Below are positions 2,032 to 23,845 of a DNA stretch of 59,586 nt, in pieces (within the stretch, counting starts at the first letter, position 1; each line of letters begins with the position of its first letter). The notes below the pieces were generated by a model. The model saw only the letters and a program-made list of their open reading frames with translations, ran no database searches and was not told the DNA's origin. The translations under genes were made by a program, and so were the position numbers. Source of the stretch: Chroococcales cyanobacterium. GTDB taxonomy: Bacteria; Cyanobacteriota; Cyanobacteriia; Cyanobacteriales; Microcoleaceae. The DNA is taken from assembly GCA_038260455.1 (NCBI GenBank), contig JBBSNU010000001.1:1-59586 (forward strand). The letters run 5' to 3'.

Positions 2032-4170
2032 CTAAATTTCGACTTCAATTGCTTGAAAAGCTTGTTTAATACCTTGAGCTAAGCCCATTTTTTGCTGTAA
2101 ACCATAAAGCTCAATCGCTTTGCGATATGCTGACCACAGGGCGCGAAAATTTTCCACCTCGCCATTGCCAGTTTTTATATTGAGCAACACCCAGCCTAAA
2201 TTATGATGTGCCTCGGCATAGTCTGGTCTTAGCTGAATGGCTTTTTCCAAATATGACCGCGCTGGCAACCACTGTCCCTGTCGCGCCAACAATGTACCTA
2301 AACGTAATTGTGTAAAGGCATCAGGCAGAAATTTCTGATGGCAAGCTTCATAGGCTTTGATAGCCCCAGTAATATTTTCTGTATGTTCGCAAACAATTCC
2401 TAAATCCCCAAATATCCAGACAGGGGCTTGTGCTTGGCGCGACGCTTTTTCAAAATTCGGAATAGCATCAGTCCACAGCCCTTGCAAGGCTTGCTTCCAA
2501 CCTATAAATCCCCAGGCAAAACTACTATCAGGAACTTGAATAATAAACTCTTGAAGGCATCGCTCGACATCGCGAGCTTCTTGGGTGACTACTATTCTAT
2601 ATAGGGCGATAGTTAGGCAAGGATATGCCCAGCGTAGCAGTTCGCGATCGCTCTGAAAATTAGCTTGCTTTGCCTTGGAAATAGCTGGTCTAGCATGACC
2701 GATCGCTGTTTTCCAGTCTTTTTGATGCACGGCGATCCATCCTTTCATTCCCAGTACAAAAGCTGATGTGCGCTTGATTTTAGTAAGGTGATCGACTGCA
2801 TCTTCTGCTTCGAGTTGAATGGCGCGCGAGACTGCAATGTCTGCTTGCTGCCAATTCTCTGTCTTGCCTAAAGCCCATGCTAAATTAGCTTGTATCCAAG
2901 CCTCGTGAGAGCAAAGGTTAGCTGCTTGCTGCAACTGTCTGACGGCTTCTGACCAATTTGATTTGCGACAGTTGATCAGGCCCAGCACTCCATAGCCCCT
3001 GCCATCGTTGGGTTTCAGTTGAATGGCTTTCTGTGCCGTAACTTCTGCCTGAGAGTCATTGAGGTGAATCAAAACTAGGGACAATTCTACGGCTGCATCA
3101 CCGTTGTTAGGTTCGTCAGTCAGACATTTTTCGTAAGCTTGGACGGCTTCGGCTAATTTTCCTTGTTTCACTAAATCGTGCGATCGCCTGTGCAGGGGTG
3201 AAACAAAGTGACCTTTGAGCGCATCAATGAGTTGATCGGCAGTTTGAAATCTCTCCTCTACCCTCATTCTCATTCCGGTTAAAATTACCTGTTCAGTTAA
3301 AGCACTAATATCAGGTCGCAATTTTCGAGGTGAAGTGAGGGTTTCTGAGGATACTCGATCGGTAGCAGCGGCTGGTGGCTCCCCAGTTAATAATTCATAC
3401 ATTGAGGCACACAAAGCATAAAAGTCTGTAGCCGGATAGCGTTTACCTTTTGCTGAATACTGTTCAAGAGGAGCATATCCAGGAGTTAGCAACTGCGTCA
3501 TATTAGTAGTTTGATTAGCAATAAACTCTCTAGTAGCACCAAAATCAATCAAAACCGCTCTATTTTGATTGTCGATGATAATATTCTCTGGCTTAATATC
3601 CCTATGTAATAGATTTTGCAAATGCACAACTTTTAAGGCTTCAGCTACTTCAATTATATAGCGTTTTACCCGTTCTTCTGATAAAGGTTTTTCATCTTTC
3701 CATAGCTGATGTAATGATTTGCCCGAAATAAATTCCATAATTATATAAGCAGTATTATTCTCTTCAAACCAGTCGTACACCTTAGCAATATTAGGGTGGA
3801 TACATTTCGATAAATATTTAGCTTCAAGCTGAAATTTGCTGAGTTGCTGTTTCCGCTCTGGAGGAAGAATAGAACTTGACCAAGTAATACTTGTGCCTTG
3901 TCTTAGTGATTTTTCTGGCCACAGTTCTTTGATAGCAACCTCTCGCGAATTTGTCGAGTCAGTACCTTTATAAGTAATGCCAAATCCCCCTTCTCCCAAA
4001 GTTTTTTCTATCCTGTAACGCCCCTGTTTTAGTAATGCGCCAGCAGACAAATGATAGGTAGATGAATTGTTAGTGCTAGAAGTAAAATTCAGACTAAAAC
4101 CACAGGCTGTACAGCTAATTGTACTGTCGGAGTTTTCTGTCATGCAGGCTGGGCAGATAATAGTAGACAT
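2032..4170 (-). CDS. Ser/Thr protein kinase with N-terminal zinc ribbon and C-terminal TPR repeats
   Basis: CPAC...CTACG; GEGGFG, VAIKE, HRDIKPEN, DFG, GYAPLE; TPR-like helices (e.g. AIQLRPDYAEAHHNLG). Start moved from 4239 to the ATG at 4170 (MSTIICPAC), which has a GAGG RBS. Confidence 0.92.
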   Translation of the reverse strand: MSTIICPACMTENSDSTISCTACGFSLNFTSSTNNSSTYHLSAGALLKQGRYRIEKTLGEGGFGITYKGTDSTNSREVAIKELWPEKSLRQGTSITWSSSILPPERKQQLSKFQLEAKYLSKCIHPNIAKVYDWFEENNTAYIIMEFISGKSLHQLWKDEKPLSEERVKRYIIEVAEALKVVHLQNLLHRDIKPENIIIDNQNRAVLIDFGATREFIANQTTNMTQLLTPGYAPLEQYSAKGKRYPATDFYALCASMYELLTGEPPAAATDRVSSETLTSPRKLRPDISALTEQVILTGMRMRVEERFQTADQLIDALKGHFVSPLHRRSHDLVKQGKLAEAVQAYEKCLTDEPNNGDAAVELSLVLIHLNDSQAEVTAQKAIQLKPNDGRGYGVLGLINCRKSNWSEAVRQLQQAANLCSHEAWIQANLAWALGKTENWQQADIAVSRAIQLEAEDAVDHLTKIKRTSAFVLGMKGWIAVHQKDWKTAIGHARPAISKAKQANFQSDRELLRWAYPCLTIALYRIVVTQEARDVERCLQEFIIQVPDSSFAWGFIGWKQALQGLWTDAIPNFEKASRQAQAPVWIFGDLGIVCEHTENITGAIKAYEACHQKFLPDAFTQLRLGTLLARQGQWLPARSYLEKAIQLRPDYAEAHHNLGWVLLNIKTGNGEVENFRALWSAYRKAIELYGLQQKMGLAQGIKQAFQAIEVEI

Positions 4171-4192
4171 TGTAGTTACCTCATGTAAAATT

Positions 4193-5488
4193 TCAAGTAT
4201 CTTGGAAGCGGAAGCGAACTTTACCAAAAGCAATCTCATCCCCTGAAGTTAAAGTTTGAGGTGCAGTGATTTTTGGGCCGAATCTTTTCTCTCCATTCCG
4301 TTTGATGAAGGTTCCGTTGGTTGAATCTAAATCTATGATATTCCACCTTCCCTCCTCTTGATAAATTCCTGCGTGTTCGGCGGATACTGTCTCATCACCA
4401 GAAAAACCAGCAAAATTAATATTTACGGCTTCTGAACATACATCAATTCTCCCTATGATTAATCGGTTTTTATCTAAGACAAATTCTCGGACATGATTTA
4501 GAGATTGTACATAAATCAATTTGGCGGTTGCACCGCTTCCACCGCTTCCTCTTAAAGCTTGAATGAGTTGATCGGCAGTTTGAAATCTTTCCTCTACCTT
4601 CATTCTCATTCCCGTTAAAATGACTTGTTCAATTAAAGGATCAAGCCCAGGAAGTAACTGTCGGGGCGAGACGAGGGTATCTGTGTGAATTCTCTCTGTT
4701 GCCTCTGGGGGAAGTTCACCTGTTAGCACTTCATACATTGAGGCACAGAGAGCATAAATATCTGTGGCTGCATAGCGTTTACTTTTATAGCTATATTGTT
4801 CCAGGGGAGCGTATCCTCGTGTCAGGGTGACGCTCATTTGTCTGGTTTGTCCGGCAATAAACTCTTTGGTAGCGCCAAAATCAATGAGAATTGCTCTATC
4901 TTGTCGATCGATAATGATATTGTCTGGTTTGATGTCTCGGTGCAGCAAATTAGCCCCGTGAATCACTCTCAGAGCTTCTGCTAGTTGAATCAAGTAGCGT
5001 TTGACTCGTTCTTTCGGTAGAGTCCCCTCTTCTTCAATAATTGTTGAGAGCGGTTTTCCGGCAATAAAATCCATTACCACATAGGCGGTATTATTTTCTT
5101 GAAATGAGTCATAAACCCTCACGATGTTTGGGTGTATGCACTTAGATAAACACTCGGCTTCTGTTGCTACTTTCTTCAGTTGCTCATCTCGGCTTTTGGG
5201 AGTAGTTGTGTGCGGCCAAACAACTGTTGTTCCTTGTCGGCTGGCTTTTTCTGGCCAATTTTCTTTGATAGCCACATTCCGGGAATTAACTAAGTCCACT
5301 CCCCCGTAGGTGATGCCAAATCCACCTTCACCAATGATTTTTTCAACGCGGTATTTCCCTTGCAGGAGCAAACTGCCAGCAGGTAAATGATAGGTAGGTG
5401 ATTGCAGTATTAAGGGTGCACCGCAAGTTATACACATTGTTGCGGTGCTCTGATTCTCCTGGGAACAAAACGGACAGATAATTGACAT
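4193..5488 (-). CDS. Ser/Thr protein kinase with N-terminal zinc ribbon and C-terminal FHA domain
   Basis: CPFC...CITCG; GEGGFG, VAIKE, HRDIKPDN, DFG; FHA motifs IIGR, VSAEHA, DLDSTNGT. Confidence 0.93.
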   Translation of the reverse strand: MSIICPFCSQENQSTATMCITCGAPLILQSPTYHLPAGSLLLQGKYRVEKIIGEGGFGITYGGVDLVNSRNVAIKENWPEKASRQGTTVVWPHTTTPKSRDEQLKKVATEAECLSKCIHPNIVRVYDSFQENNTAYVVMDFIAGKPLSTIIEEEGTLPKERVKRYLIQLAEALRVIHGANLLHRDIKPDNIIIDRQDRAILIDFGATKEFIAGQTRQMSVTLTRGYAPLEQYSYKSKRYAATDIYALCASMYEVLTGELPPEATERIHTDTLVSPRQLLPGLDPLIEQVILTGMRMKVEERFQTADQLIQALRGSGGSGATAKLIYVQSLNHVREFVLDKNRLIIGRIDVCSEAVNINFAGFSGDETVSAEHAGIYQEEGRWNIIDLDSTNGTFIKRNGEKRFGPKITAPQTLTSGDEIAFGKVRFRFQDT

Positions 5489-5512
5489 TGCTGGTATCTA
5501 CTCCGGCTAATT

Positions 5513-7483
5513 TTAGTAACTATTTTCTGGATTACAATGAAGTTGTAATGCTAAAAGTGTGGCGTTATCGGGCGCTCCTCCTTTGAGAACGCGATCGATA
5601 GTTTCATCAACGGCTGTTTGTAATATCGACTCTTGGGCAAAAATTCCCGCCAGTTCGTCTTTATCAACTAAATCCCAGACTCCATCCGAACATAAAAGCA
5701 AGATATCCCCATCTTCTAAGAGCATAGATAAGCCTTCGCTAGAACGGCTTAAATCTTGAACGTAGCCGTTGCTTAATCGGCGCTTTGAACCGATCGATTT
5801 AGTGAGAACGTTGCGATCTGGGTGATCTAGACTCTCTTCATAGGTGATTTCACCGCTCGCAACGAGCATGGCGACAAGTGAGTGGTCTTCGCTTAACTGC
5901 TGCAATTCTTTGTTTCTTACCAGGTAAATGCGACTATCTCCGACGTGAGCTATCATTAAGTCTCGCCCGACTGCTAGAACTATACTTAATGTAGTTCCTC
6001 CATCGCGCACGTTAGTGGCTACGGATTCATTGGCTTTTTGGACTAATGAAAGCAGCCATTCTGACTTTTGCTCTACAGTTTTGAACTCAGCAGATATAGG
6101 TTCTTCTAAGGTGGTTTCGACTGCTAATTTGCTAGCAACTTCGCCTTGAGACATACCACCCATGCCATCGGCAACAACTCCCAAAATCAAGGATTCGGAA
6201 TTGCTTAATTGCACTTGTCTAATGCCATAGCTATCTTCGTTTTGAAGGCGGCTAGTTGATAGTCCGACTGTTGAACGGCTGGCGACATTCCACTCGATTC
6301 TTTTAGTAGGGAATGACTGGCGAGTTTCCACTAACAGGCTTAAGAGTTGAGAGAGAGAAAAGCGCTCTTCTGGGATGGGAGAGAGAGAAATTTTGAGCAG
6401 TTGATAAATCCGGGGAATCGGTTGAATATTGATGTCTAATTTGTTGTCGCGGGGTAGGGGTTGTTTGTGAATGGATTGATACAACAAGGCTCCGATCGCA
6501 TAGCTACTCATTGATTCGTGGACGGGATGGGTACCTATGGCAAGTTCGGGGGCGCAGTAGTTTCCCGACAAACCCGATCGCATTTGTTCGCCGATCGCGT
6601 AAACTCCTGTTAAGTCAAAAAATTTGATCGGAGTTCCCATTTGAATCAGTTGGGGGAGGATGTGGACAACACACCAACCTTTCTGGTATATATATCGAAA
6701 AAATTGGCAGACTTGGCTGCTGAGATATAATGAGGATTCTAGAGAATTATCTCCGGCCAGCCAAGCTTCTAATGTTGAGCTTTCTTCTGGAAGATAGCTT
6801 AAAAGGATAAGTTTGTGCTCATCACCCGTTTCAGAAATTATGTCCTTTTGTGGATGGTATTCCTCATCTAAATACTCTGATTTTGCCTCGGTTACTTCCT
6901 CAGCAGCATCCGGTTCATCCCTCGGTGTTTCGCACTTGGGATCAGATTCATCGGGAAATTTCTCGGCTTCGTCTGCTACGGAATTAAGAGATTCATCATT
7001 AATAGATTGTTCTGAACCTGCTACTACATCAGGATCTAGATTCTTAGGTTCATCTGGCTTTGCTAGTGAATCATTAGCTTGATGATTATTGGCTGCATCT
7101 GTCTCTGCTACTAAATCATGAACTTGATGATTATTGGCTGCATCTAAAATTGGTGGGCGGTTTTTATCGCTTTCTTCTTGCTGCAAAGGAGGCCGAAAAT
7201 CTATAACTACCGACTCTTTTGTGGTATGAGCCAGCAGTTCGCCTATCATTTTGTATTCTTTTAAATCCTCCCGCAATTTGAGTTCTCGACTTAGCCCGCC
7301 CTCAGTGGAGCCGACGCGCAGCAAACCTAATTTTCCAGGTTCCGAACTGTCGCTTTTAGGAGAAATATTCACTTGAAAGTAGTAAATACTTGGTGTCAGT
7401 TGACCTAGATACAAGAGAATTTCTACTTGATGGTTTTCTATCTGAATGATGCCTTTTTCTTGAATCACAAGATCAGTGTTCAT
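5513..7483 (-). CDS. PP2C-family Ser/Thr phosphatase fused to an N-terminal degenerate kinase-like domain
   Basis: PP2C motifs RLQNEDS, VADGMGG, HVGDSR, LCSDG, DNAT. The upstream part keeps GNYCAPE and PEERF but lacks HRD and DFG. Confidence 0.88.
   Translation of the reverse strand: MNTDLVIQEKGIIQIENHQVEILLYLGQLTPSIYYFQVNISPKSDSSEPGKLGLLRVGSTEGGLSRELKLREDLKEYKMIGELLAHTTKESVVIDFRPPLQQEESDKNRPPILDAANNHQVHDLVAETDAANNHQANDSLAKPDEPKNLDPDVVAGSEQSINDESLNSVADEAEKFPDESDPKCETPRDEPDAAEEVTEAKSEYLDEEYHPQKDIISETGDEHKLILLSYLPEESSTLEAWLAGDNSLESSLYLSSQVCQFFRYIYQKGWCVVHILPQLIQMGTPIKFFDLTGVYAIGEQMRSGLSGNYCAPELAIGTHPVHESMSSYAIGALLYQSIHKQPLPRDNKLDINIQPIPRIYQLLKISLSPIPEERFSLSQLLSLLVETRQSFPTKRIEWNVASRSTVGLSTSRLQNEDSYGIRQVQLSNSESLILGVVADGMGGMSQGEVASKLAVETTLEEPISAEFKTVEQKSEWLLSLVQKANESVATNVRDGGTTLSIVLAVGRDLMIAHVGDSRIYLVRNKELQQLSEDHSLVAMLVASGEITYEESLDHPDRNVLTKSIGSKRRLSNGYVQDLSRSSEGLSMLLEDGDILLLCSDGVWDLVDKDELAGIFAQESILQTAVDETIDRVLKGGAPDNATLLALQLHCNPENSY
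7078..7145. repeat. In-frame 45-bp-period duplication in the acidic linker (DAANNHQ x2)
   Basis: CTTGATGATTATTGGCTGCATCT at 7078-7100 and 7123-7145. Confidence 0.8.
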
Positions 7484-7538
7484 ATTAATCTGTAAGTAGG
7501 TAATGATTTTTGATTGTTTGCGGTCAGTGTTTGGAGAT

Positions 7539-7565
7539 TTACCTACCCTTTTGGGGGGTAGGTAA
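7539..7565. terminator. Intergenic hairpin (terminator or mRNA-stabilising stem)
   Basis: TTACCTACCC-N7-GGGTAGGTAA, a perfect 10-bp stem between the FHA and PP2C genes. Confidence 0.5.
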
Positions 7566-7679: not shown

Positions 7680-8219
7680 TTAGGGACTTTGAAAGAGGAA
7701 TTTAATTTTGGCGATCGCAATTTCATCTCCACTATTTAAAACTTCAGGGATCGTAATCCTTGCACCGAAGCGAGACTCACCGGAACGTTTAATGAAAATA
7801 CTGTTAACAGAACCGAGATCCTTAATTTTCCAAACCCCTCCTTCTAGATAAATTTCCCCATGCTGGCGCGAAATTGTTTCGTCACCGGGGAACCCTTCTA
7901 AATCAATGTCAACAGGGCCGCTATCTGGGTCAAACTTGCCGATAAGCATATTGCTGCCATCAAGGGGAAACTCTGATGTCGGAGCACCGGCTTGTTTACA
8001 AATGAGTTTGGCGGTTGCTGCTGAGGTGGGGAAAGTAGGAGCTGGATAGTTAGGTTGCGGTGCAGGTTGCGGTGTAAAAATTGGTTCTGGAGACTGAACT
8101 ACAGTGGGCGCTGTGGGTTCCGGCGATCCGGATGCGGTGCTGAGTTCGTAGCCGCAAGCATCGCAGAATTCTGCATCGCTTGGGTTTTCATAATGACAGG
8201 CGGGACAGGTAATAGCCAT
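7680..8219 (-). CDS. Zinc ribbon + Pro-rich linker + FHA domain protein
   Basis: CPACHYENPSDAEFCDACG; FHA LIGK...ISRQHG...DLGSVNS. Confidence 0.9.
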   Translation of the reverse strand: MAITCPACHYENPSDAEFCDACGYELSTASGSPEPTAPTVVQSPEPIFTPQPAPQPNYPAPTFPTSAATAKLICKQAGAPTSEFPLDGSNMLIGKFDPDSGPVDIDLEGFPGDETISRQHGEIYLEGGVWKIKDLGSVNSIFIKRSGESRFGARITIPEVLNSGDEIAIAKIKFLFQSP

Positions 8220-8439: not shown

Positions 8440-9825
8440 CTAGGTTCCCGATAGCTTGCGAATTTGTTCTTCTGAAAGCTGGTCGTCATTGATATCCCCG
8501 CCCATTTTGACGGTTTTACTTTTGGAACCCATTTTGACGGTTTTGCGAGTTCCATCAGAAATTTTGCGGGTTTTTCGCAACTCGTCTTGAGCTTGATTGA
8601 GAGATTCAGTCATAGCGTCGTTGCCAATTCTTACCGTCATCCGACGGGCTGTTTCTAGCAGTTCTTCAGCTTTTTGAGGATTGCTCTCGGCAACGCGCGT
8701 AGCCTGATTAACGAGTTGGGAAATGTTGGACTGCTGTACATAACTCATGACTTCTGGATCTACTTGGGCGGCAACTTGTCCGGTGACAAATTGTACGAGT
8801 AGATTTTCTGGTGGCAATTCGCCGCGCCGATTTTGTCCTGGAACATCGTAGGTTAAGCCCATTTGGGCAATTCTGACGCGGGATGCGGCGCGACTTTCGA
8901 TGCTGAATTCTAAGATGAAAATAGTCTCATCATTCGCTACAGCATTGCCCAAGGGATAGGGTTCTTGAGTTAGGGGAAATTCGGCTAGAGTCGGATAGAC
9001 GCGGACGATGCGAGTTAGTTTTACGCCTTTAACTGTTTTGATGGTTAAGGCTAAGTTGGTGATAACTTCTTTTTTTGCTTCGCTGAATTCCTGAATGATT
9101 GTATCCGGAAGATTGGTGATGGAAACTGCTGTGCCACCATGATTTTGTTCCGCCACAATGTGCATTTGAGATCCACCCGTCGTATCACTGAGATGGTTAA
9201 GTAAATCTTCGTTAAATTCTCCGACTCCTAATGCTGTAATAGGAACATTGTTGGTGGCAAATTCGCTGGCGATCGCTCTGCATACATCTTCGTCAAAGGT
9301 TTGACCGTCGGTGAACAGCACGGTGCGCCGGATGGTCATGTTTTGCCCCGATAGCAAGCTTAACGCGCCCCGCAAACCCAATCCCATGCGCGTGCCGCCG
9401 GAAAATTCTCGCAAGCGTTCGATCGCACTTTCTAACTGACTGATTTGAGTAGCTGGTGTGAGTCCGATAATCGTAGAAGCTGAGTCATCAAACTGGACAA
9501 TGGCAATGCGATCGCTCGCCCCAAGTTTGCCAGAGTGAATCAGTCTCTTTAGGGACTCCATCACAATGTCAATCTTGGTTCGCCCACCGGTGACTCCCAT
9601 ATACTCTTGACCGTCTACCGTAAATGTTTGACCAGTAGGTACGGACTCGCCCACTACGACTTCGTACATGGAACCGCTGGTATCAATCAGAAAAACAAAA
9701 GTTGTGGATGGGCGCGTATTTGCTACTTCTTTTGTCGGTCGCAGCTTCAGCATTACAAACAGTTTTTGTTCGGCTGCATCGCAGGGCAAAAATTCTCGGT
9801 GGGGTGCAATTTGGACATTCAGCAT
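8440..9825 (-). CDS. Cytoplasmic vWA domain protein
   Basis: MIDAS DTSGSM, GGTRM, LFTDG; helical C-terminus; AAGGA RBS. Confidence 0.9.
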   Translation of the reverse strand: MLNVQIAPHREFLPCDAAEQKLFVMLKLRPTKEVANTRPSTTFVFLIDTSGSMYEVVVGESVPTGQTFTVDGQEYMGVTGGRTKIDIVMESLKRLIHSGKLGASDRIAIVQFDDSASTIIGLTPATQISQLESAIERLREFSGGTRMGLGLRGALSLLSGQNMTIRRTVLFTDGQTFDEDVCRAIASEFATNNVPITALGVGEFNEDLLNHLSDTTGGSQMHIVAEQNHGGTAVSITNLPDTIIQEFSEAKKEVITNLALTIKTVKGVKLTRIVRVYPTLAEFPLTQEPYPLGNAVANDETIFILEFSIESRAASRVRIAQMGLTYDVPGQNRRGELPPENLLVQFVTGQVAAQVDPEVMSYVQQSNISQLVNQATRVAESNPQKAEELLETARRMTVRIGNDAMTESLNQAQDELRKTRKISDGTRKTVKMGSKSKTVKMGGDINDDQLSEEQIRKLSGT

Positions 9826-14888: not shown

Positions 14889-16190
14889 CTAAGCTTGAGC
14901 CTCTCGCTTCAAATATTCGGCCCACAGCCAGAATGGTAAAACACCGCCGACAGCTATCACAACTAAGACAGCTAGCAGCATAGTCATGCGGGTATTCAAG
15001 GGAAGCGATCGCCCAAACACAGTAATCGTATAAGACGCTGGTGCTGATTTGACCGATTGGATAACCACCTGAACGTCATGCTTAGAACCGCGTTCAGCAT
15101 TCGGTTGGTTATAGCTGATTTGATACTCGCCCAAAAGCGCATTCAAAAATAACTTAAGTTTGTCGGTAACAGTCTGAGAGTCAGGCGAAAATTCAGCTAT
15201 GCCGCCTGTCGCCTTGGCAATTGCTGCTAAACTGTCCTGATCTACAAAATCGTCCTCTGGAACTTTGCGATCGCCTTTCCCGACATCGGAAATTTTAGCT
15301 GCCCTCCCTAAATTATACTTCTTGCCTAACTCCGCCGGTGTTAAACCGTAGCCCAAAGTATGAATAGTGATTTGATCGTTCTTTTTTAACAGCGATAACA
15401 GGCTATTAAAATCCTTGTCTCGATTAGCCTTATTGTGATATCCGTCCGATAAAACAATAATCGATAATCTAGGCTGAGGTTCATTGGAATCTTTTGGCAC
15501 ATAAAAACCAGGATTAGATGATGGATCAGCTAAAAAACGGACGGCCTTACTGAGAGGTTCATAAATGTTAGTAGAAGCACAGGCTATTTCTTTGGGTAGG
15601 TAGTCATTCAGGTAGCTAGCCAGTTTGTAATCACCGGCTGACATAAAATTATTCAGCTTGTCAGGTGTGACTGGAAAGCCTTTTTCGCAACTAGGGCCGC
15701 CGTCCCCAAAGGGAATAATTGATACTTGCGGCTTCGGACAAGCAACGGTTGAATTTTTAGGGCAGCGATTGGCTAACTCGGTAGTGAATTGTTTAATAGC
15801 ATCGATAGAACCTGCTTTTCTCGTTGTTCCTCGGCTGTCTTTATTGTTCATGCTGCCACTAAAGTCGAGCAGGACGATAATCCAAGCGGGAGGCGGTACA
15901 GCCTCTTCGGGACTTTTCCAATCTTTGCTGCGAAACTCCAGCGGTTTATTGTCCACTATTAAGTTAAAGTCTGTCTCCTGTAAACCTAGTACAGGGCGAT
16001 CGTTAGCATCTTTAGCTTTAATTCTGACAGTCACACGTTCATTTTCCAGAACAGGAGTGCCAATTATTTCGGCACTTTTTACTTGACCGAAACCGGGACT
16101 GCTGAAGGAAAGAGCTAACAGTGCAGACAAGCTAAGCCTGCGGGTCAAGGAAACGATTGTAGTATACAAATCGGTATAATTTTTCTTCAT
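14889..16190 (-). CDS. Exported vWA domain protein with C-terminal membrane anchor
   Basis: Signal-like RRLSLSALLALSFSSPGFG; MIDAS DFSGSM; VLSDG; C-terminal TM. Confidence 0.87.
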   Translation of the reverse strand: MKKNYTDLYTTIVSLTRRLSLSALLALSFSSPGFGQVKSAEIIGTPVLENERVTVRIKAKDANDRPVLGLQETDFNLIVDNKPLEFRSKDWKSPEEAVPPPAWIIVLLDFSGSMNNKDSRGTTRKAGSIDAIKQFTTELANRCPKNSTVACPKPQVSIIPFGDGGPSCEKGFPVTPDKLNNFMSAGDYKLASYLNDYLPKEIACASTNIYEPLSKAVRFLADPSSNPGFYVPKDSNEPQPRLSIIVLSDGYHNKANRDKDFNSLLSLLKKNDQITIHTLGYGLTPAELGKKYNLGRAAKISDVGKGDRKVPEDDFVDQDSLAAIAKATGGIAEFSPDSQTVTDKLKLFLNALLGEYQISYNQPNAERGSKHDVQVVIQSVKSAPASYTITVFGRSLPLNTRMTMLLAVLVVIAVGGVLPFWLWAEYLKREAQA

Positions 16191-17211
16191 CGGGTCTGTC
16201 CTGTTGGAGGGGGTAAAAAGTCAAGATATTGTTGTGTTTGAGAGAAATTGGGTTAGAGGAACTTAGGCGACAGCCATTTACTTCGATAGTGTTGTAAAAC
16301 TTAGGATTAGGTTTGAGAATAGCTTCGCGAACCTTCACTTCTAAGTCTGCTGCGTGCAGGGGTAGTCCCGGAATTTGGATATTTGCCTTGTCAGCCGAAC
16401 CGATTTTAATTGTGCCTGTAGCAGGAAGTTGAATAGACAAGCCCTCTTCAATTTGTTCTGATTCGCTATCGCTAACAAATTGGAGTTTTCCCTCCTTTTT
16501 ATTAATCGTTGGATATTCAGACTTCGACCCACTTGCATCGTAGTAAACATCCCCTGTGTACTCAAAGCCAGAACCTGCTCTCAAAGCGGCCATGTAGCTG
16601 GGAGAAGTCGAGATGCTGAACACGAAGCCGAGTAACATTCCTAGAATTGAAAAGCCGATCGGGTCTTCAAGACCTTTGAGTGCTGCTGGGAATTCTCCGA
16701 TGAATTGCCGCAGGATTTCAAAAATGAGTGCAGCGGCGAGACTGGCGGCAAAACTGGCGATCGTGCTTGTCTGGAATCGTTGCCAGAAACGCTTGGCATC
16801 TCCCGCTTCGATGCTGTGCCACCGCCAACTTACCCCCTCAGCAATGCCTGTAGAAGTGCCGATTAGCAGCCAACTGACAATCCTGAGAATTCTCGTGTCA
16901 AAGCGAACTTGGGGCAGCAATACAATTTGGGAGATTCCGCCTGCAATTAAGCCTGCTAATATCCCCAAAACGGCAGCAATGGCGATCGGAAATAAAGCTA
17001 TGCGCCAGCACAATTTAGGTCTAGTTGGGGTACTGACGAAAATTTCAGTAAACACCATTCCAACGGCCAGCGACACAGCGATGCAGGGAAACAAAACAAG
17101 TTCGGGAAAAGGCTTCAGCAACCCTAAGTCAGTGAGGAACACTTGACCGAGGTTCCAGCCAATTAAGGCTGATGTAATGCCAGCTAGGATGTAAAAGTAT
17201 CTTCTCATCAT
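16132..17211 (-). CDS. Multi-pass membrane protein with C-terminal FHA-like beta domain
   Basis: About 6 TM segments, then IKIGSADKANIQIPG...EVNG...LKHNNILTF (FHA-fold-like, lacking the canonical GR and SxxH). Confidence 0.75.
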   Translation of the reverse strand: MMRRYFYILAGITSALIGWNLGQVFLTDLGLLKPFPELVLFPCIAVSLAVGMVFTEIFVSTPTRPKLCWRIALFPIAIAAVLGILAGLIAGGISQIVLLPQVRFDTRILRIVSWLLIGTSTGIAEGVSWRWHSIEAGDAKRFWQRFQTSTIASFAASLAAALIFEILRQFIGEFPAALKGLEDPIGFSILGMLLGFVFSISTSPSYMAALRAGSGFEYTGDVYYDASGSKSEYPTINKKEGKLQFVSDSESEQIEEGLSIQLPATGTIKIGSADKANIQIPGLPLHAADLEVKVREAILKPNPKFYNTIEVNGCRLSSSNPISLKHNNILTFYPLQQDRPDEEKLYRFVYYNRFLDPQA

Positions 17212-17213
17212 AT

Positions 17214-19367
17214 TTAACCTCTCCCTCCCGGTGGGGTATTAAAATTTTGTGGTGGTGGGTTACTCAGCTTTTTCTTTAGATATTTTCTTAACTCTTGAAC
17301 CGTAGATTTTTCTGATAACATATATCCTGCGGGCAAAGTTTTTTCAGGATTCTTACTTTGATATTGATATATCGCATTAATCCATTCTGTTTTTGTGGTT
17401 TCTTTTGCTTTTACCCCTTTGATAGCATCTGTATAATCAAGATTGATATCTTGAAAAAGCGACTTAAGTTCAAAGATAATTTTTTCTTTATCTAATCCCT
17501 CCTCTTTTACAAGTGCATTGACCACCTCTTCATTCATCACTCGACTGGTTTCAGCAAACTTTTTCAAGGCTTCTTCCTCTTTATCTTGCGGTATTGGAGC
17601 GACTATATTAGTCTTCCTGTCTTTTCGTGGTTGAGTAGCAGTCTGAGCAGGAAAACTATCTCCTTTAGAATTATCTGATGTAGTAGTAGATTGATTTCTT
17701 TCCTGGGAATAAGGTGTTTTTTGAAACAAAGCTTTTCCTCCTAATAAACCGACCATAAATGTCAACAGTATCAGCGGAAATACAATTACAAGTGGCACAA
17801 AAATACCTCCTAATTCCATTAACAAAAATAACAATGATTCTGGGAAACTTACTTGCTTTTTGAGGGTCAATCCATAAACATTAGAATTTCGACCTCCATT
17901 CGAGACTTCAGAAAAAATTCTTTTGGGTACTTCGCCATAGCCTATTTGATAGAAAAATGCTGCTATTTTGGGAGACTGTAATTTATCAAACAATTCAGCC
18001 AACGTCTGATATTGTGTTTGATGCGGATAATACCTGTCTTGCCAATAAACCTTGACATCATTTGCTAACTTTTTCCATTTTTCATCGTGAATTATTTTGC
18101 TGTGTAAGTTGGGTAATTGCCTCACTTTAGGATTCATCAAGCTTAAATCATGGTCAATATCTAGAACCACTTGCTGAGAATAAATATGTCTCCACAATCC
18201 AGAGGGGAAACTCAATAACCAAACAACATTCTCTAACAACTCTGGTTGCTCAATCAATCTAGGAATAATCAGCTTGACCCCTTGAGTTATTTTGAGGGTA
18301 AAATTCTGTGCATTTCCTGCGATTCCGCTGATTGAGCTTTTTATTTCAGATTGAAAAGTCTCAGAAACTTGATAATGATCCTCCTGTTTTCCCCGCTTCT
18401 GCATCCAAGAGAGGAACTCTGGTAATGTCTCAGGAAGGACGATCGCCCTTAGCGTCAACAGGCGCACCATCTGAGGGCTGTAAATTCCCTGAGAGCGCGC
18501 TTGAGCCGCCCCTTGCGCGTTAAAAATTACTTCCCAGTCGCTATCCTGAACTTGGTTCAGCGCTGTTTCAATTGCTTGCACTTGCTCCAGCTTGACGTTT
18601 TCCCGGCTAATCAAACCCTTAATTGCCGATTTAATCTCGTACTCCCCGGTAATGGGGGCAGTATATTGAGGCGTACTGGCGATCGCCCTGTGCAACAATT
18701 GCTCAGCTTTTTCACTAGCAGGCTGAATCACCAAAAAACTTCTGGGTTGTTCCAAGGCTTCCGCCTGAAACGCCCAAGCAACAGGTTGACCGTTTTCTCT
18801 CCCTTTTTCCATTGCCATTTGATTGACAATAAAGGCTGTACAGGGCTGTTGTACAGAAGGAATAATAACTGGAACATTATTAACCAGTAGATTTTGAAGT
18901 TCAGGGGGCAGAGAAATTTGAGGTTGATTCGTGGCTGAACATTCATTCGGCTGCCCCACAACTTTCGTTTCAAAGGGGTTAAAAACAGATATCTTCTTCC
19001 CCGGCTGAGAATATATCCAAGCCAAAATCTTCCACAGGTTGCCGACCCCTTCGCACAGAAAATAACGGTACATAGTAGGTTTTCGACCTTTATCATCTCT
19101 GCCTCTGATGACGACAGCGATCACTGACCAATCTTGCCCGCCACCCCGCACTTCGCGACCAATGATTGCAGGATCGTCGCTGGAGGCACCCTCAGCAACG
19201 GCAAATTCTCGATTGGCGATCGCGCTCTGCACAGAGGCTGGAATAGGGTCAACGGTTTTGTTCATATACTCCCCCACAAATCCGTGCGATACCCACCTGC
19301 CGTCGGGAGTCATTTCTGCTTGGATACCAGTGCTAAATTCGTGAATTTTAATGGTTGCTGAATTCAT
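17214..19367 (-). CDS. GTPase-associated large protein (GAP1-like N-terminus) with C-terminal TM hairpin
   Basis: Directly follows three GTPases; the N-terminal GRDDKGR...YRYF segment resembles GAP1-type domains; TM pair near residues 510-545. Family call is inference from context. Confidence 0.6.
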   Translation of the reverse strand: MNSATIKIHEFSTGIQAEMTPDGRWVSHGFVGEYMNKTVDPIPASVQSAIANREFAVAEGASSDDPAIIGREVRGGGQDWSVIAVVIRGRDDKGRKPTMYRYFLCEGVGNLWKILAWIYSQPGKKISVFNPFETKVVGQPNECSATNQPQISLPPELQNLLVNNVPVIIPSVQQPCTAFIVNQMAMEKGRENGQPVAWAFQAEALEQPRSFLVIQPASEKAEQLLHRAIASTPQYTAPITGEYEIKSAIKGLISRENVKLEQVQAIETALNQVQDSDWEVIFNAQGAAQARSQGIYSPQMVRLLTLRAIVLPETLPEFLSWMQKRGKQEDHYQVSETFQSEIKSSISGIAGNAQNFTLKITQGVKLIIPRLIEQPELLENVVWLLSFPSGLWRHIYSQQVVLDIDHDLSLMNPKVRQLPNLHSKIIHDEKWKKLANDVKVYWQDRYYPHQTQYQTLAELFDKLQSPKIAAFFYQIGYGEVPKRIFSEVSNGGRNSNVYGLTLKKQVSFPESLLFLLMELGGIFVPLVIVFPLILLTFMVGLLGGKALFQKTPYSQERNQSTTTSDNSKGDSFPAQTATQPRKDRKTNIVAPIPQDKEEEALKKFAETSRVMNEEVVNALVKEEGLDKEKIIFELKSLFQDINLDYTDAIKGVKAKETTKTEWINAIYQYQSKNPEKTLPAGYMLSEKSTVQELRKYLKKKLSNPPPQNFNTPPGGRG

Positions 19368-19371
19368 TTTT

Positions 19372-20289
19372 TTAGTCCTTATCTAATTCTTTGTGCCGTT
19401 CGCCTGTGCAAAGCCAATAAATCGGAGCAACTAAGCCAAATGGCCGCCAGCGTTTCGGGTCTTTAATCACAGAACTCGTGCCGTCGCGATCGCGCTTGAG
19501 CCTTGTTGAATTTGGTTCTGGATACCTACTCCCCAACATTCCAAAAGCAGAAGTAGTAAAGTAATCTACTTGACCGCCTCCCATTTGTTCCCACCCTTGC
19601 AATTTCCTAAAAGTTTGAGGAAAACGAGCTTGCGCTAATACTCTTGGCTTGTGCCGACTCACCCACAATTCACACTGTTCGCACTTCGTCATTACAAAGG
19701 CTATGCGCCGTTGGTTGCTGCTAATATCGGTGCGATCTAGAGCCATTAAAAACTTATCCAGACCGTTAGCATACTCAGAATCTTTGCGGTGAGTCGTGCC
19801 ATCTACGAGCAACATAATTCCCGTTGATCTCACGCAATCTTCTAGGTAGTCTACTAGCAGCGAATCTCCGGTTCTGTGGAGGAGGTCGCTAAAAAATTCA
19901 CCTGCATAGTCTTTGCAGCTTATGTTTAACTTGACAAGCTGTGGTTGCAAGGTTACTTTTGGCGTTTTCCAGGTAAATTCCCCTTTAAGAACAATACTTA
20001 AGGTGTAATCTTTGATATCATCAACACTTGCAAGAGCAGTTGCTTCAAGCTGTAGCCCTTGCTCCAAGATATTTTGAGCTTTAGCAACCAGTTCGTTGGC
20101 ATCATCGTTAATAGGCGTGACAGTTTGAACAGGACTAGAAGTATTGGCATTGGGCCAATAAGCTAGCGATGCCATGTAAGCAGTTTTGCCAGAAGCGCGA
20201 TCGCCAATCACTCGAACTTCAGCGCTGCGATCGAGCGGTTCTGAATTACTAGAAGTTTTGGTTTTATTTTGACTTAGCCAATCCAGCAT
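19372..20289 (-). CDS. TRAFAC-like P-loop GTPase (3rd of tandem trio)
   Basis: G1 GDRASGKT, G3 DYAGE, G4 TKCE, G5-like TSAFG. Confidence 0.82.
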   Translation of the reverse strand: MLDWLSQNKTKTSSNSEPLDRSAEVRVIGDRASGKTAYMASLAYWPNANTSSPVQTVTPINDDANELVAKAQNILEQGLQLEATALASVDDIKDYTLSIVLKGEFTWKTPKVTLQPQLVKLNISCKDYAGEFFSDLLHRTGDSLLVDYLEDCVRSTGIMLLVDGTTHRKDSEYANGLDKFLMALDRTDISSNQRRIAFVMTKCEQCELWVSRHKPRVLAQARFPQTFRKLQGWEQMGGGQVDYFTTSAFGMLGSRYPEPNSTRLKRDRDGTSSVIKDPKRWRPFGLVAPIYWLCTGERHKELDKD

Positions 20290-21126
20290 TTACTTGACCT
20301 TTCCTTTTGCTTTAGTTGTTTTACCAAGCCAATAAAGAGGCTCAATCATGTTGTAAGGTTGCCAGCGGGGGGCTTCTCTTAAAACTGAGGCCTTGCCTGA
20401 TTTTCCTTTTTCATCTGTGCGATTTGGTCTGGGGTCAGTTCGGCGTAATACACCAAATGTAGAAATTGCATAGAATCGGAGATTTCGGGGCGCGATTTTA
20501 TCGCGCAAAATATCTTTTGTTCTGGGGAGATGCAATCCAAATAAGTCTGTTTCTGGGTCAAGTCGTCCGGGCCAAAGTTCCCCTCTTTCACACTTACTCA
20601 TTGCCACTGCTAGGCGTAAGTCATTGGCGCGATCGTGAGAATCTATTAATTCTATAAACCGACTCATTACTCGGCTATAAAAACTGTCATCTGCTTTGTC
20701 CCAAGCCGTTAGGAGAATTAAACACCCTCCTACATCTTTCATTAAACATTCGTTAATAAACTCTTCATAAATATTATCCGATATAGTTGGGTCAGCTATT
20801 TTTTCAAATACCTCCCCTGGATAATCTCTAACGTTGAGTTGAAATGACTCTTGATTCGCCAACCAATGTTTTTTGATTTCCAAGTTAAAAGAGTAGTACG
20901 GCAAATCATCAACCGTTTGAATTTCTCGCCCAATGACTGTTGGCTCTACAGAGTCTCCCTGACAAATAATATTTTCAGCTAGATCTGCCAACTTTCTCGA
21001 ATCATCATTTAATGGGACAAGATTAAAATCTTTTGACTTTCCCATTGTTCGTTTTTTGTAGGCTAAGGCAGCTAGATAAGTTGTTTTCCCTGATGCTCTT
21101 GGCCCAATAATGCAAATATTTCCCAT
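20290..21126 (-). CDS. TRAFAC-like P-loop GTPase (2nd of tandem trio)
   Basis: G1 GPRASGKT, G3 DYPGE, G4 SKCE, ISTFG. Confidence 0.82.
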   Translation of the reverse strand: MGNICIIGPRASGKTTYLAALAYKKRTMGKSKDFNLVPLNDDSRKLADLAENIICQGDSVEPTVIGREIQTVDDLPYYSFNLEIKKHWLANQESFQLNVRDYPGEVFEKIADPTISDNIYEEFINECLMKDVGGCLILLTAWDKADDSFYSRVMSRFIELIDSHDRANDLRLAVAMSKCERGELWPGRLDPETDLFGLHLPRTKDILRDKIAPRNLRFYAISTFGVLRRTDPRPNRTDEKGKSGKASVLREAPRWQPYNMIEPLYWLGKTTKAKGKVK

Positions 21127-21139
21127 GATTTTTACTCCT

Positions 21140-21904
21140 TTACTTGGCTAAAAAGCTCGCTAAATAAATCCAAGGAAGTTCTAATAAAGACCGATTGTGA
21201 ATGCTAGTAATAAAGCAACGAACTGATAAGCCGGATACAGTTTTATTGATTTGCTCTATTTGTGGTTGTAGGGGTCGAAAGTATCGTTGAAAGACATAGG
21301 CATCTCGTTGTTGCCAATTCAACTTAGAGCGGTGAGGAATATACGCTAATTTAGAAACATCCACATCAAAATCACAAAATAGATCTGCTTTATTTAAGCA
21401 AATGATTAAATGTCTGACTTGCTTGCAATCGTAGCGAAAAAATTCTACCCACCGATTAAACCTATTACACCATTGCTGTTCAGTAATAAAATCATCAGGA
21501 TTTACATCTGCACCAGGCTTGATAATTTCTCGATATGGTTCAAGTATTAGCAAAATTCCCTCGCTTTTTAGAATAGTTTCTAAAAAATTATTCCATTCAT
21601 TTGGGTTTGCTAATTGCCAACTTTTTCGCCATATTTCCCCCGGCGTATCTATCCAATCTAAAGTAATTTGCTTGTGACCACTAGGAATTTCTACTTTAAT
21701 TTCTAAACTACGATTGTGAGTAGATGACACTGCATCTGTGGCTTTTGTACTCTCTAATTCATTATCATAGAGCATTGCTTTGAGAATTTCATAATCAGGA
21801 TAAGTAACTTTGACGTAGTTACTTTTTGGGTTGGCTAACTCCATCGCTAAATGGGTTTTGCCGGCAGCACGATCGCCAATATAAATCACCCCCATTGTTA
21901 TCAC
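21140..21904 (-). CDS. TRAFAC-like P-loop GTPase (1st of tandem trio)
   Basis: G1 GDRAAGKT, G3 DTPGE, G4 NKAD, TSI. Confidence 0.85.
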   Translation of the reverse strand: MITMGVIYIGDRAAGKTHLAMELANPKSNYVKVTYPDYEILKAMLYDNELESTKATDAVSSTHNRSLEIKVEIPSGHKQITLDWIDTPGEIWRKSWQLANPNEWNNFLETILKSEGILLILEPYREIIKPGADVNPDDFITEQQWCNRFNRWVEFFRYDCKQVRHLIICLNKADLFCDFDVDVSKLAYIPHRSKLNWQQRDAYVFQRYFRPLQPQIEQINKTVSGLSVRCFITSIHNRSLLELPWIYLASFLAK

Positions 21905-21907
21905 CTC

Positions 21908-23485
21908 CTACTGTGCTAAATAATCTGTTAAAAAAGGTTTAGTTGTTGGCGTATGCGAAGTATTCATCCGCACGATCGCACTTTGTCCACTCGGCAGTGC
22001 AGCCAAAGGCCGATTGCTAATCTCCCAAACTCCCAAAACAGGAACTCGTTCGTAGTTGATACTTCTTTGATGGAAGGGACTGGGGCCAACCCCCCCTTGA
22101 GCTACAGTCATACTTATCACCTGCCTTTGATATTCACCTAACGGTTTACTCAGCCACTCTGCTGTTTTGTGACTCACTCCTTGTAAAAAGATTTGCGTTC
22201 GACAGTTGTTGAGTGCTGGCAGAGTTTTTTCTGGAAATTGGTCTATTGATTGGCACATCAAAAAAATGCTTGCTTTCGCATTGCGGCCAATGGCCGTTAG
22301 TTCTTCATAGTTAATATTTTCCAATCTAGGAGCTTCATCGCAGATGATATAAGTCGGAGTCCAGCTATGACTGGGATTTTTCATCCGGCGGTACATCACA
22401 TTCATCACATAGGTAATCATCACCGCTGCCAAAGCAGAGCCAAATTTTCCGTCTGCTAGCGATTGACCAACTACTAAAGCGATCCGAGAAGTGCCATTCA
22501 AAGCTTTTAATAGAAAAATTCCGCTGGCACCGTCGCAAATTTTTCTCACTCTTGGGTCTTTGAAAGGACTGAGTTTATTTTGTAAAAAGCTAATATCTAG
22601 CCCAAATCTGCTATCGGGAAGAGTTAGATAAGAATAAAGGTCTGAACCCCACTGAGAATTAGCTTGCGGTAAATTATCTAACAAACCTTGCACGGCATCT
22701 CTGTCCATAATAAGAGCAGATAAATCGCTTGGGTCAAGTTTGATTAAATTTTGTCGTCTCGCTTCCACAACAACTCCTAAAATGGCACTCAGCCACAGGA
22801 TGTCTCGCTTCCAAAAAGCAGAGTTCGGGTCTGTGTCGTTAAATTGGCCGTAGAGTGCTTGGGCGATCGCCCTAATTTCGTTCTCAGTCCCAAATTTTTC
22901 CAACTCCTCCAAAAAGTTCCAAACAACTAAGTTTTTAGTCCCGCTCAAGTCCCAACAAACTAACTTTGACCCCGCACTGCGAGCCATCCCCGAAAGGCGA
23001 TCGCCCAAAAAACCCGCAGCATCAACGCAAACCAGATTACCCTTAGACATCAAGTTACCAGCAGACTTCAACAGCAGTTCCGTTTTACCTGAACCCGTTG
23101 CCCCCGCAATCAAAACGTGTTGATGTAAAGACTCGTTAGGAATCCAAAGGTCAGTTGTCAATCTAGCTTGACCGCGCCTAAAATTTACATAATTACCCAG
23201 CCAAAAATCACCATTTTTACCATCACCATGTGCTAAATTTTTTACTTCTTTGCTACTGGCTGTTTGCGAATAATCAAAAAGCTCTTGATATCTCACAGAA
23301 GGTTTAAGAGACTCCCCCGGGCCAATAATTAGAAGAGCTTTACTATTGGCAGCAGCACCGACGGACTTGAAACTTTCATGAAATATCCAGCCGAACATTT
23401 TGAAAATTTGTCTGGCAAAAAACCCTAAAACTTTCAGGTAGAGTTGGATTATCCACCAAAAAACACCAAAAAGAAATTGCTCCAT
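21908..23485 (-). CDS. VirD4/TraD-like coupling ATPase (FtsK/HerA superfamily)
   Basis: N-terminal hydrophobic segment, HVLIAGATGSGKT, SAFW motif, Walker B IICDEA, GRN...CQSIDQ, NNCRTQIF, TAEWLSK. Start MEQF at 23485 with AAGGA RBS. Confidence 0.85.
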   Translation of the reverse strand: MEQFLFGVFWWIIQLYLKVLGFFARQIFKMFGWIFHESFKSVGAAANSKALLIIGPGESLKPSVRYQELFDYSQTASSKEVKNLAHGDGKNGDFWLGNYVNFRRGQARLTTDLWIPNESLHQHVLIAGATGSGKTELLLKSAGNLMSKGNLVCVDAAGFLGDRLSGMARSAGSKLVCWDLSGTKNLVVWNFLEELEKFGTENEIRAIAQALYGQFNDTDPNSAFWKRDILWLSAILGVVVEARRQNLIKLDPSDLSALIMDRDAVQGLLDNLPQANSQWGSDLYSYLTLPDSRFGLDISFLQNKLSPFKDPRVRKICDGASGIFLLKALNGTSRIALVVGQSLADGKFGSALAAVMITYVMNVMYRRMKNPSHSWTPTYIICDEAPRLENINYEELTAIGRNAKASIFLMCQSIDQFPEKTLPALNNCRTQIFLQGVSHKTAEWLSKPLGEYQRQVISMTVAQGGVGPSPFHQRSINYERVPVLGVWEISNRPLAALPSGQSAIVRMNTSHTPTTKPFLTDYLAQ

Positions 23486-23518
23486 TTTATGTTCCTTTAG
23501 CAATGCAGCGCGATCGGA

Positions 23519-23845
23519 CTAGATAGATGCAGATGGTGGCTGGGCTGTTGGAGTTGACCGCGATGTTTGAGGAACGCTTTGTTTGAGAGTGGCAAGTTTT
23601 TGTTGATTCGGGGTTTGCTGTGTTTGCTGTTGTTGAGTGGGGGTTTGTGCCTTCAAGTCAGCTAGCTTTTGCTTGAGTTCCGCCATCGTTGGACTGGTTG
23701 TTGTTTGCCCCTGCGTTGCAGTTTGTTGAGTTTTTGGTTGACTCTCTCTTTTGCCAACTTCTTTGTTCTCTATTGCATCGTTTCTTTTCACATCCCAACT
23801 CTCCTGGGGAGTTGGAGCTTTTGGTTTCTGCCGCTGTCTTTCCAT
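23519..23845 (-). CDS. Small Gln/Thr/Pro-rich low-complexity protein
   Basis: First gene of the minus-strand run; ATG 23845 (MERQRQ) with AAGGA upstream; short coiled-coil MAELKQKLADLK. Confidence 0.65.
   Translation of the reverse strand: MERQRQKPKAPTPQESWDVKRNDAIENKEVGKRESQPKTQQTATQGQTTTSPTMAELKQKLADLKAQTPTQQQQTQQTPNQQKLATLKQSVPQTSRSTPTAQPPSASI

Follow-up and report, generated by a model that had tools for sequence, protein, structure and literature searches.

The window analysed here is a stretch of 59,586 nt, contig C1 of a Chroococcales cyanobacterium genome (G000) that is 75% complete; the proteins most closely related to those of this genome bear Microcoleus names. On its minus strand, at 2032-23845, lies a cassette of 18 co-oriented genes centred on three consecutive GTPases (G1, G2 and G3) and a membrane protein of 717 residues. 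The distribution of this gene set over genomes and plasmids supports the view that it is one conserved, mobile unit. Judged by their motifs, G1-G3 are relatives of the DO-GTPases, and among DO-GTPase/GAP1 conflict systems the cassette likely represents a third type, a cyanobacterial one, with the 717-aa protein as the likely third type of GAP1.

Conservation and mobility of the cassette

The earlier note, made from the sequence alone, had listed 18 co-oriented genes in a single run, and this list was borne out: the region holds 18 minus-strand open reading frames (ORFs) in the order first described, the Q/T-rich gene beginning with an ATG at 23845. With likely start codons, neighbouring genes overlap or are no more than 60 nt apart at 14 of the 17 junctions. 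The three wider ones measure 151 nt (lipoprotein 1/2), 220 nt (vWA/Zn-FHA) and 196 nt (Zn-FHA/PP2C). Scans of the region for promoters (42 vs. 34.1 ± 5.5) and terminators (18 vs. 18.7 ± 4.5) stayed at the level of shuffled sequence. Seven RNA runs hold small shares of the region, and contigs from four RNA runs span parts of the Q/T-rich, ATPase, GTPase, transmembrane (TM) and vWA genes; contigs cannot show transcription or co-transcription, and nothing is drawn from them here.

A protein search with G2 found matches in 29 of 401 genomes of the phylum and on 8 plasmids, and a G2 profile was positive in 41 of 144 genomes of the host family and in 8 of 79 of the host genus. Annotation of 39 loci (34 genome loci around the phylum matches and 5 plasmids) answered the gene-neighbourhood check that the earlier note had proposed, and the gene order is indeed conserved. 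G1, G2, G3 and a 717-like gene are contiguous in 27 of the 39 loci, two of them assigned by clustering; of the remainder, G1 is missing from one, a contig end truncates another, and 10 carry solo, fused or distant GTPases. The full run down to the kinase is kept in 16 of the 39, in many families. A set of 14 loci has the same order as far as the DNA extends, three of them with broken genes. Since it recurs in dozens of genomes, the gene order is not due to chance. In Trichormus variabilis ATCC 29413 the cassette accounts for over half the length of a plasmid of 35.8 kb.

The conservation is layered. The core is G1-G2-G3-717, with one to three divergent copies of the 717-like gene per locus; it is followed by the FHA-like TM gene and the exported vWA, and then by a last block formed by the gene for a 134-aa hypothetical protein (hyp134), vWA, Zn-FHA, PP2C and the kinases. 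In G240 and L103/L106/L108 this block lies upstream in inverted orientation; G103 and G378 lack it, in G136 it is orphaned, and in four loci, which also have a radical-SAM gene upstream, an AAA gene takes its place. The idea of one unit in the earlier note thus stands for a conserved and mobile cassette, but the ATPase and the Q/T-rich protein are not part of the core (5 of 36 carriers), and the vWA/FHA/PP2C/kinase block is separable.

Several observations concern variant loci. L067, L069, L071 and L073 (G398, G097, G151 and G172) form a kinase-less subtype with an uncharacterised 358-aa gene and a radical-SAM gene upstream, and an AAA ATPase downstream of hyp134. The copy in a Planktothrix metagenome-assembled genome (L003:7987-16811) is fragmented, with an ATPase fragment and split G1, 717-like and vWA genes; either decay or an assembly error may account for it. 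Four loci (L064:1925-4126, L033:36400-39045, L087, L088) have dynamin-family genes, which in two of them lie within or next to the cassette and in the other two precede distant DO-GTPase2-like genes on the upstream side.

GTPases and their probable GAP1-like partner

All three GTPases contain GxxxxGKT and DxxGE; G1 has NKxD, and G2 and G3, which are 33% identical, have [ST]KCE. DO-GTPases are defined by a Walker-B glutamate and occur as one or two per system, according to the available portion of PMC7159879. In the GTPase alignment D101, G104 and E105 are conserved at 90% or more, which supplies this glutamate, whereas the number of paralogues is three in 27 of the 39 loci. DO-GTPase1 is the top family for 21 of 22 aligned GTPases (E up to 1). 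A sequence search of the PDB returned only generic P-loop GTPases. A link to TssM was sought and not found: the TssM family (PF14331) has no match in the cassette, and when the GTPases were compared by hhalign with a single TssM, from Rhizobium, no more than 14 P-loop columns aligned. Fusions of solo G3-like GTPases were also seen, with GUN4 in two genomes or with a Ser/Thr kinase (L078:11048-14722, L028:2205-5294, L084:7729-9411), and the GUN4-GTPase fusion of G256 has no 717-type N-domain.

The 717-aa protein has no Pfam match and belongs to a family of 613 clusters at 50% identity. In its confident AlphaFold model (pLDDT 86.6) the N-domain is alpha/beta and is followed by a helical middle, a region with a TM hairpin at about 512-547, a linker and, at the C-terminus, a small helical domain. 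Beyond the N-domain, fold searches with parts of the model yielded generic helical matches only. PG_binding_1 matches 7 of 42 homologues (best E 1.7e-9). The N-domain modelled alone (pLDDT 93.3) aligns with Acinetobacter TagF over 191 residues (Z 7.0, rmsd 4.0), and the next fold matches (best Z 4.2) are longin/DENN-type GTPase regulators including GATOR1, DENND1A and MON1. The fold tool cautions that a Z below 8 may reflect a common arrangement; the gap to the second rank and a common motif suggest that the TagF match is more than that. With Foldseek the top six rows are all TagF, at E 0.01-0.025, none of them significant.

The motif in question is a DxxGR hairpin. D91 and R95 are near-invariant in the N-domain, and DxxGR or DxxNR occurs in 120 of 145 N-domains and in all six TagF sequences examined, and its counterpart in 50 GAP1-N2 proteins, D80/R84, is invariant. 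In TagF, S79, D81 and R85 are required for Fha binding, according to the available portion of PMC5995506. Sequence profiles do not make the connection: TagF_N (PF09867) has no match to the N-domain; hhalign of the N-domain against TagF is not significant (E 0.37), although it lands on the DxxGR hairpin; and the GAP1-N2 profile was negative against the six-sequence TagF alignment. In the Atlas, the nearest named clusters for the N-domain of one homologue are all GAP1-N1/N2, with scores of 0.82-0.88 that fall under the 0.9 mark and provide a lead only.

The strongest functional link of the N-domain to the GTPases is a natural fusion found in G034, where an 836-aa gene that lies between G1 and G3 combines an N-domain (identified by hhalign at 99.7%, E 2.6e-26) with a G2-type GTPase. 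GAP1 itself is sometimes fused to a GTPase, as the accessible text of PMC7159879 reports. A complex prediction for G2, G3 and the N-domain scored 0.00, and the controls likewise did not fold, so that it carries no weight either way. Because of its fold, its DxxGR hairpin, its position directly downstream of the GTPases in 27 of the 39 loci and the G034 fusion, the 717-aa protein is read as a GAP1-like partner, not as a proven member of GAP1. The link to GTPase-centred (DO-GTPase/GAP1) conflict systems that the earlier note had drawn is supported.

Envelope, signalling and accessory modules

The features are collected in Table 1. Family calls rest on Pfam and NCBIfam searches of the window proteins, with Pfam at E<=0.01 for the 18 genes. 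They confirm most of the domain labels of the earlier note (ATPase, vWA, VanY, IMS, FHA, PP2C, kinase, TPR), giving three vWA proteins, two FHA proteins and two kinases, with the DO-GTPase1/2 families for the three GTPases. The 717-aa, 359-aa, 134-aa and Q/T-rich proteins have no match in either collection. Two labels fared less well. Pfam does not recognise the "FHA-like" tail of the 359-aa TM protein, from which the phospho-Thr residues GR and SxxH are absent, and "pseudokinase" describes degenerate kinase motifs read from the sequence, where Pfam again found nothing.

Table 1. Genes of the cassette and the adjoining divergent pair, with positions in the window
Feature	Position	Strand	Basis
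Q/T-rich 108-aa protein, partner of the VirD4-like gene in close relatives	23519..23845	-	ORF, synteny
VirD4/TrwB-like ATPase, N-terminal TM, optional module	21908..23485	-	PF02534 E 4e-15
GTPase G1, canonical NKxD, DO-GTPase-related	21140..21904	-	DO-GTPase1 27.7 bits, cut-off 27
GTPase G2, DYPGE, SKCE, DO-GTPase-related	20290..21126	-	DO-GTPase1 33.6 bits, above cut-off
GTPase G3, DYAGE, TKCE, G2 paralogue	19372..20289	-	DO-GTPase2 24.8 bits, under cut-off
717-aa membrane protein, TagF/GAP1-N-like N-domain 1-230	17214..19367	-	structure model, motif
Multi-TM 359-aa protein, degenerate FHA-like C-terminal domain	16132..17211	-	label from alignment
Exported vWA, C-terminal TM anchor, intact MIDAS	14889..16190	-	Pfam/NCBIfam, TM prediction
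Lipoprotein 1, Cys N-domain, weak C-terminal PPC match	13704..14828	-	Pfam, alignment
Lipoprotein 2, same N-domain + ARC6-like IMS	12599..13552	-	PF13355 E 7e-17
Membrane-anchored VanY-family peptidoglycan peptidase, swappable hydrolase slot	11793..12578	-	PF02557 E 3e-39
vWA - multi-TM - FHA-like protein, optional	10266..11750	-	Pfam, TM prediction
Conserved 134-aa protein, no family; retained in kinase-less subtype	9881..10285	-	synteny
Cytoplasmic vWA, intact MIDAS	8440..9825	-	Pfam, motif
Zn-ribbon - FHA protein	7680..8219	-	Pfam
Degenerate kinase-like region + PP2C	5513..7483	-	PF13672/PF00481, NF033484; pseudokinase from motifs
Zn-ribbon - Ser/Thr kinase - FHA, optional	4193..5488	-	Pfam
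Zn-ribbon - Ser/Thr kinase - TPR	2032..4170 (ORF open to 4239)	-	Pfam
Divergent pair NB-ARC/STAND + kinase-TPR	24128..27780	+	Pfam, synteny

An anchorage of the cassette in the envelope is supported by the TM segments and peptidoglycan (PG)-binding tail of the 717-aa family, the lipoproteins and the wall hydrolases. All three vWA proteins keep an intact DxSxS; in the one labelled as exported, a TM segment lies towards the C-terminus, near residue 404. Both lipoproteins have a common N-domain whose leader Cys is invariant in 20 of 20 aligned homologues and is preceded by Gly in at least 90% of them, although a strict lipobox expression matched neither. Lipoprotein 1 belongs to variable paralogue arrays: from zero to five lipoproteins fill the slot between the two vWA-TM genes, which may also hold a single wall enzyme. 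This enzyme is one of three unrelated wall hydrolases that take each other's place, namely VanY (window, G009, L007, L015), a class-A serine hydrolase (L003, L006, L014 and three plasmids) and an AmiA-like amidase (G211). The window VanY scores under the cut-offs of the resistance VanY models.

The ATPase matches the T4SS-DNA_transf, TraG-D_C and TrwB families of Pfam, and its closest solved structures in the PDB are TrwB and DotL. Walker A (GATGSGKT) and Walker B (ICDEAPR) are intact, the motifs being kept in 20 homologues. Its subfamily is tight, with 53 matches at 45-98% identity before a drop to 30% or less. Where it occurs among the carrier genomes it lies directly upstream of G1 each time. 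A close orthologue was found in 11 of 144 family genomes, in 10 of the 11 about 0.8-0.9 kb upstream of the G2 match, and the gene stands beside the GTPases in 7 of 8 carriers of the host genus. Among 12 metagenome loci with the ATPase, the next gene is a cassette-type GTPase in all 10 that have downstream DNA; two are 98% identical to the window, and five others adjoin a GTPase with a degenerate P-loop. This makes 20 linked cases with a cassette GTPase as the next downstream gene, some loci being near-identical. The phylum sample contains only two distant matches (26-30%), in genomes without a GTPase match. In the eleventh orthologue (G461), the ATPase takes up an effector slot in a different conflict system: it forms the rear part of a fusion whose front domain shares 55% identity with the N-terminus of the window gene 56696-58693. 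The fusion sits in a MoxR-vWA cluster, and the window copy has CHAT in the same C-terminal slot. The distribution and this fusion indicate that the ATPase is an optional and specific module that conflict systems can use as a plug-in. VirD4 has no mention in the available portion of PMC7159879.

Homologues of the Q/T-rich protein (61-77%) lie upstream of the ATPase in L007, L022 and L099-L102, and a Q-rich 94-aa ORF takes this position in L009. In L103, L105-L108 and L079 the ATPase is followed by a GTPase without the lysine of the P-loop GKT, and the vWA/kinase block lies divergently upstream. Distant VirD4-like genes (25-26%) stand near JAB/MPN genes, not conjugation genes, in L032:9011-13822 and L113. 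In close relatives a CHAT-trypsin gene is placed between the divergent NB-ARC and Q/T genes (L099:270-2162, L101, L102).

The divergent pair of NB-ARC/STAND and kinase-TPR genes, which also adjoins the cassette in L007 and L101, is likely a linked regulator; a STAND + TPR pair also neighbours the cassette in L032, and in G309 such a pair adjoins a canonical system of the GAP1-N2 type. Further along the plus strand, 52385-58693 is an iSTAND ternary conflict system with CHAT-iSTAND, a MoxR-type AAA gene, an unscored gene where the vWA would stand, and a fourth gene that ends in a CHAT tail; in the latter an N-domain without a Pfam family precedes a swappable C-terminal module, VirD4-like in G461. 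At 49616-52241 (+) a 180-aa gene and a JAB...ThiF fusion form a bacterial ubiquitin-like conjugation module. An uncalled helical protein, a DUF1822-type protein and a CHAT gene are arranged twice, at 36974-38985 and 43238-49001 (+), with CHAT-NACHT-TM and pentapeptide-CHAT genes near these sets. Two similar YbjN-like proteins (28077-28745 and 42506-43168, +) each follow kinase-TPR or CHAT genes.

Possible function and comparison with known systems

The chances seem about even that the cassette is a conflict or surveillance system anchored in the envelope and wall, with thresholds set by the GTPases and by phospho-Thr. We infer its signalling and output steps, which would proceed as follows. 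An intruder or a breach of the envelope would be sensed and a response triggered through the GTPases and threonine phosphorylation. The 717-aa protein would span the inner membrane and grip the peptidoglycan, the lipoprotein array and the exported vWA would act as variable sensors, and the hydrolase would clear room in the wall. On the cytoplasmic side the TagF/GAP1/longin-like N-domain would set the nucleotide state of G1-G3, and, in the way that TagF retains Fha, it may bind the FHA-like membrane protein encoded next to it. Kinase and PP2C acting against each other would set a second threshold, read by the FHA proteins. The output could be a local membrane assembly, a vWA/GTPase scaffold that contains or disables the entering element. 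The VirD4-like ATPase would be plugged in as a sensor or an effector, plausibly to act as a decoy that meets conjugative DNA or relaxase on entry, rather than as a motor of the whole machine.

The conflict reading would explain the DO-GTPases, the GAP1-like partner with its fusion, the fast-diverging sensor arrays, the carriage on plasmids, the neighbouring genes (iSTAND/MoxR, JAB-ThiF, CHAT and NACHT in the same window) and the plug-in ATPase. It is also favoured by one lineage that pairs the ATPase with a P-loop-dead GTPase; the available portion of PMC7159879 describes inactive modules as typical of DO-GTPase/GAP1 systems. Several points weigh against it. The GTPases are fixed in three genera of the family (12/12, 7/7 and 4/4), which suits a housekeeping envelope role as well. 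hhalign of the N-domain against GAP1-N2 is centred on DxxGR and not significant (E 0.018/0.053, probability below 3%, with two unrelated alignments as controls at E 0.31/0.34), and Pfam finds no GAP1, GASH or FNIII on any cassette gene. A toxic effector is lacking, and the PADLOC matches are to generic models (kinase, PP2C, ATPase), none of them specific to a system. The defence role of DO-GTPase systems is itself a computational prediction in the available part of PMC7159879.

A rather unlikely alternative is a needle-less trans-envelope export or assembly machine, similar to the membrane complex and regulators of type VI secretion systems (T6SS), powered by the VirD4-like ATPase in some lineages and perhaps with the Q/T-rich protein as substrate or adaptor. 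The fold of the N-domain is closest to TagF, whose Fha-binding S-x-D-x-x-G-R residues match the cassette motif, and the FHA-like TM gene directly follows the 717-aa gene. VanY, the class-A serine hydrolase or the AmiA-like amidase in one slot resemble TagX (VanY family) or MltE, which serve T6SS assembly according to the available portion of PMC13584744, and the ATPase, closest to TrwB and DotL, has intact motifs. However, the ATPase is absent from 31 of the 36 carriers and the hydrolase from many loci, the TagF match lies below the confident range of the fold tool and lacks sequence support, and no TssM-like match extends beyond the P-loop. Neither an outer-membrane channel, pilus, relaxase nor known substrate was detected among the scanned genes; the 37 window proteins include no relaxase or mating-pair genes. 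TssC (PF05943) was found in 0 of 25 carriers, with a positive E. coli control and G000 at 75% completeness, and a phage-type sheath in 13 of 28, being absent from several closed genomes. Obligate pairing with a contractile tail is ruled out by these counts, which refer to carriers only. Of the "trans-envelope sensing or translocation machine" proposed at the outset, the sensing or conflict half is therefore better supported than translocation, for which channel, sheath and substrate genes are lacking.

It may also be proposed, tentatively, that GAP1-N, TagF and the 717 N-domain all belong to a single bacterial superfamily of longin/DENN-like GTPase regulators. On this view the cassette would be a needle-less, GTPase-gated envelope machine with the same ancestor as the T6SS control module; one of its lineages would have acquired a dedicated ATPase of VirD4 type, either as a pump for a substrate or as a trap for conjugative DNA that comes in. 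No paper tying TagF or GAP1 to DENN/longin folds turned up in the literature listings. Such a fold-level bridge from GAP1 to TagF and, weakly, to longin/DENN would give GAP1 and TagF a testable biochemical role.

Housekeeping or developmental envelope remodelling with no anti-invader role, in the manner of the FtsZl1/vWA/GTPase operons, is unlikely. It might comprise wall-stress repair, septum or cell-contact remodelling, or vesicles, and would suit the PG-binding tail (7 of 42 homologues), the wall hydrolases, the ARC6-like IMS, the fixation of the GTPases in several genera of the host family and the weak longin/DENN fold matches (Z about 4), which hint at GTPase control of the membrane-traffic type. 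Membrane remodelling has been proposed computationally for operons with vWA, kinase, divergent GTPase and PG-binding genes, as the available portion of PMC2875224 states. On the other hand, about 93% of the sampled phylum genomes and 71 of 79 genomes of the host genus have no match, the cassette travels on small plasmids, its sensor-side genes diversify fast, and no tubulin/FtsZ-like gene is present. Chance adjacency of independent blocks (a stray coupling-protein gene, a GTPase block and a vWA/PP2C/kinase triad) would fit the inverted, missing or orphaned kinase block of some loci, but it is very improbable and largely refuted by synteny, with the full order in 16 of 39 loci and the ATPase abutting the GTPases in 10 of 11 family orthologues and 10 of 10 informative metagenome loci.

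The earlier note had not recognised the full combination as characterised, and we likewise found no paper describing it in a search that did not cover subscription journals or the supplementary source data of PMC7159879, where some of the loci may be listed; a 2026 preprint, in its available portion, touches DO-GTPases only in passing (10.64898/2026.10.19.760177). The available part of PMC7159879 describes GTPase-centric conflict systems as nearly absent from cyanobacteria, and the GAP1-N2 model, consistent with this, matches 1 of the 401 phylum genomes. A widespread, unannotated third type, whose GTPases occur in 41 of 144 family genomes, would fill this gap. The plasmid-borne copy of Trichormus variabilis ATCC 29413 makes tractable a class of systems that, in the available literature, is so far only predicted, and the ATPase is a member of the coupling-protein family used outside conjugation.

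The FtsZl1/vWA/GTPase operons, as far as the available text of PMC2875224 describes them, share vWA proteins, Ser/Thr kinases, divergent P-loop GTPases, PG-binding and TM proteins with the cassette, which differs in having no FtsZ/tubulin-like gene by Pfam. The ATPase has the family, the N-terminal TM and the intact Walker motifs of the type IV coupling proteins VirD4, TrwB and DotL, but it forms a separate subfamily, without adjoining relaxase or VirB genes, tied to GTPases or MoxR-vWA. The TerY-P triad consists of vWA, PP2C and kinase, and PADLOC includes models for it. The cassette has this Pfam trio in adjacent genes, with Zn-FHA and TPR in addition and embedded in a larger envelope cassette; PADLOC gave no match for either vWA and only PDC-M21C for the PP2C. 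With the T6SS accessories TagF, Fha, PpkA, PppA and TagX (the available portions of PMC5995506 and PMC13584744) it shares a predicted TagF-like fold with DxxGR beside FHA, PP2C and kinase genes, a VanY-family wall peptidase and lipoproteins. It differs from the T6SS in having no TssC in 25 carriers and no TssM match, GTPases at the tssM position, and a TagF-like domain built into the 717-aa membrane protein.

A separate canonical DO-GTPase2/GAP1-N2/GrpE system, with an IMS protein related to that of the cassette, was observed in G309 (L116:5116-15572).

The DO-GTPase/GAP1 systems of the GAP1-N2 type combine, like the cassette, GTPases carrying the Walker-B Glu with a partner directly downstream and sometimes fused, TM and extracellular domains of PG-binding/NTF2 type, and the theme of kinase, PP2C and vWA, which the available portion of PMC7159879 confines to actinobacteria. 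The cassette differs in its three GTPases without Zn ribbons, a partner that GAP1 models miss, its cyanobacterial host, the wall-hydrolase slot and the optional VirD4-like ATPase. It has lipoprotein arrays in place of the GASH (N1 type) or FNIII-repeat (N2 type) third component, for which the 18 genes gave no Pfam match; these arrays may be its analogue, and the highly variable accessory components that mark DO-GTPase/GAP1 systems are found in the cassette too.

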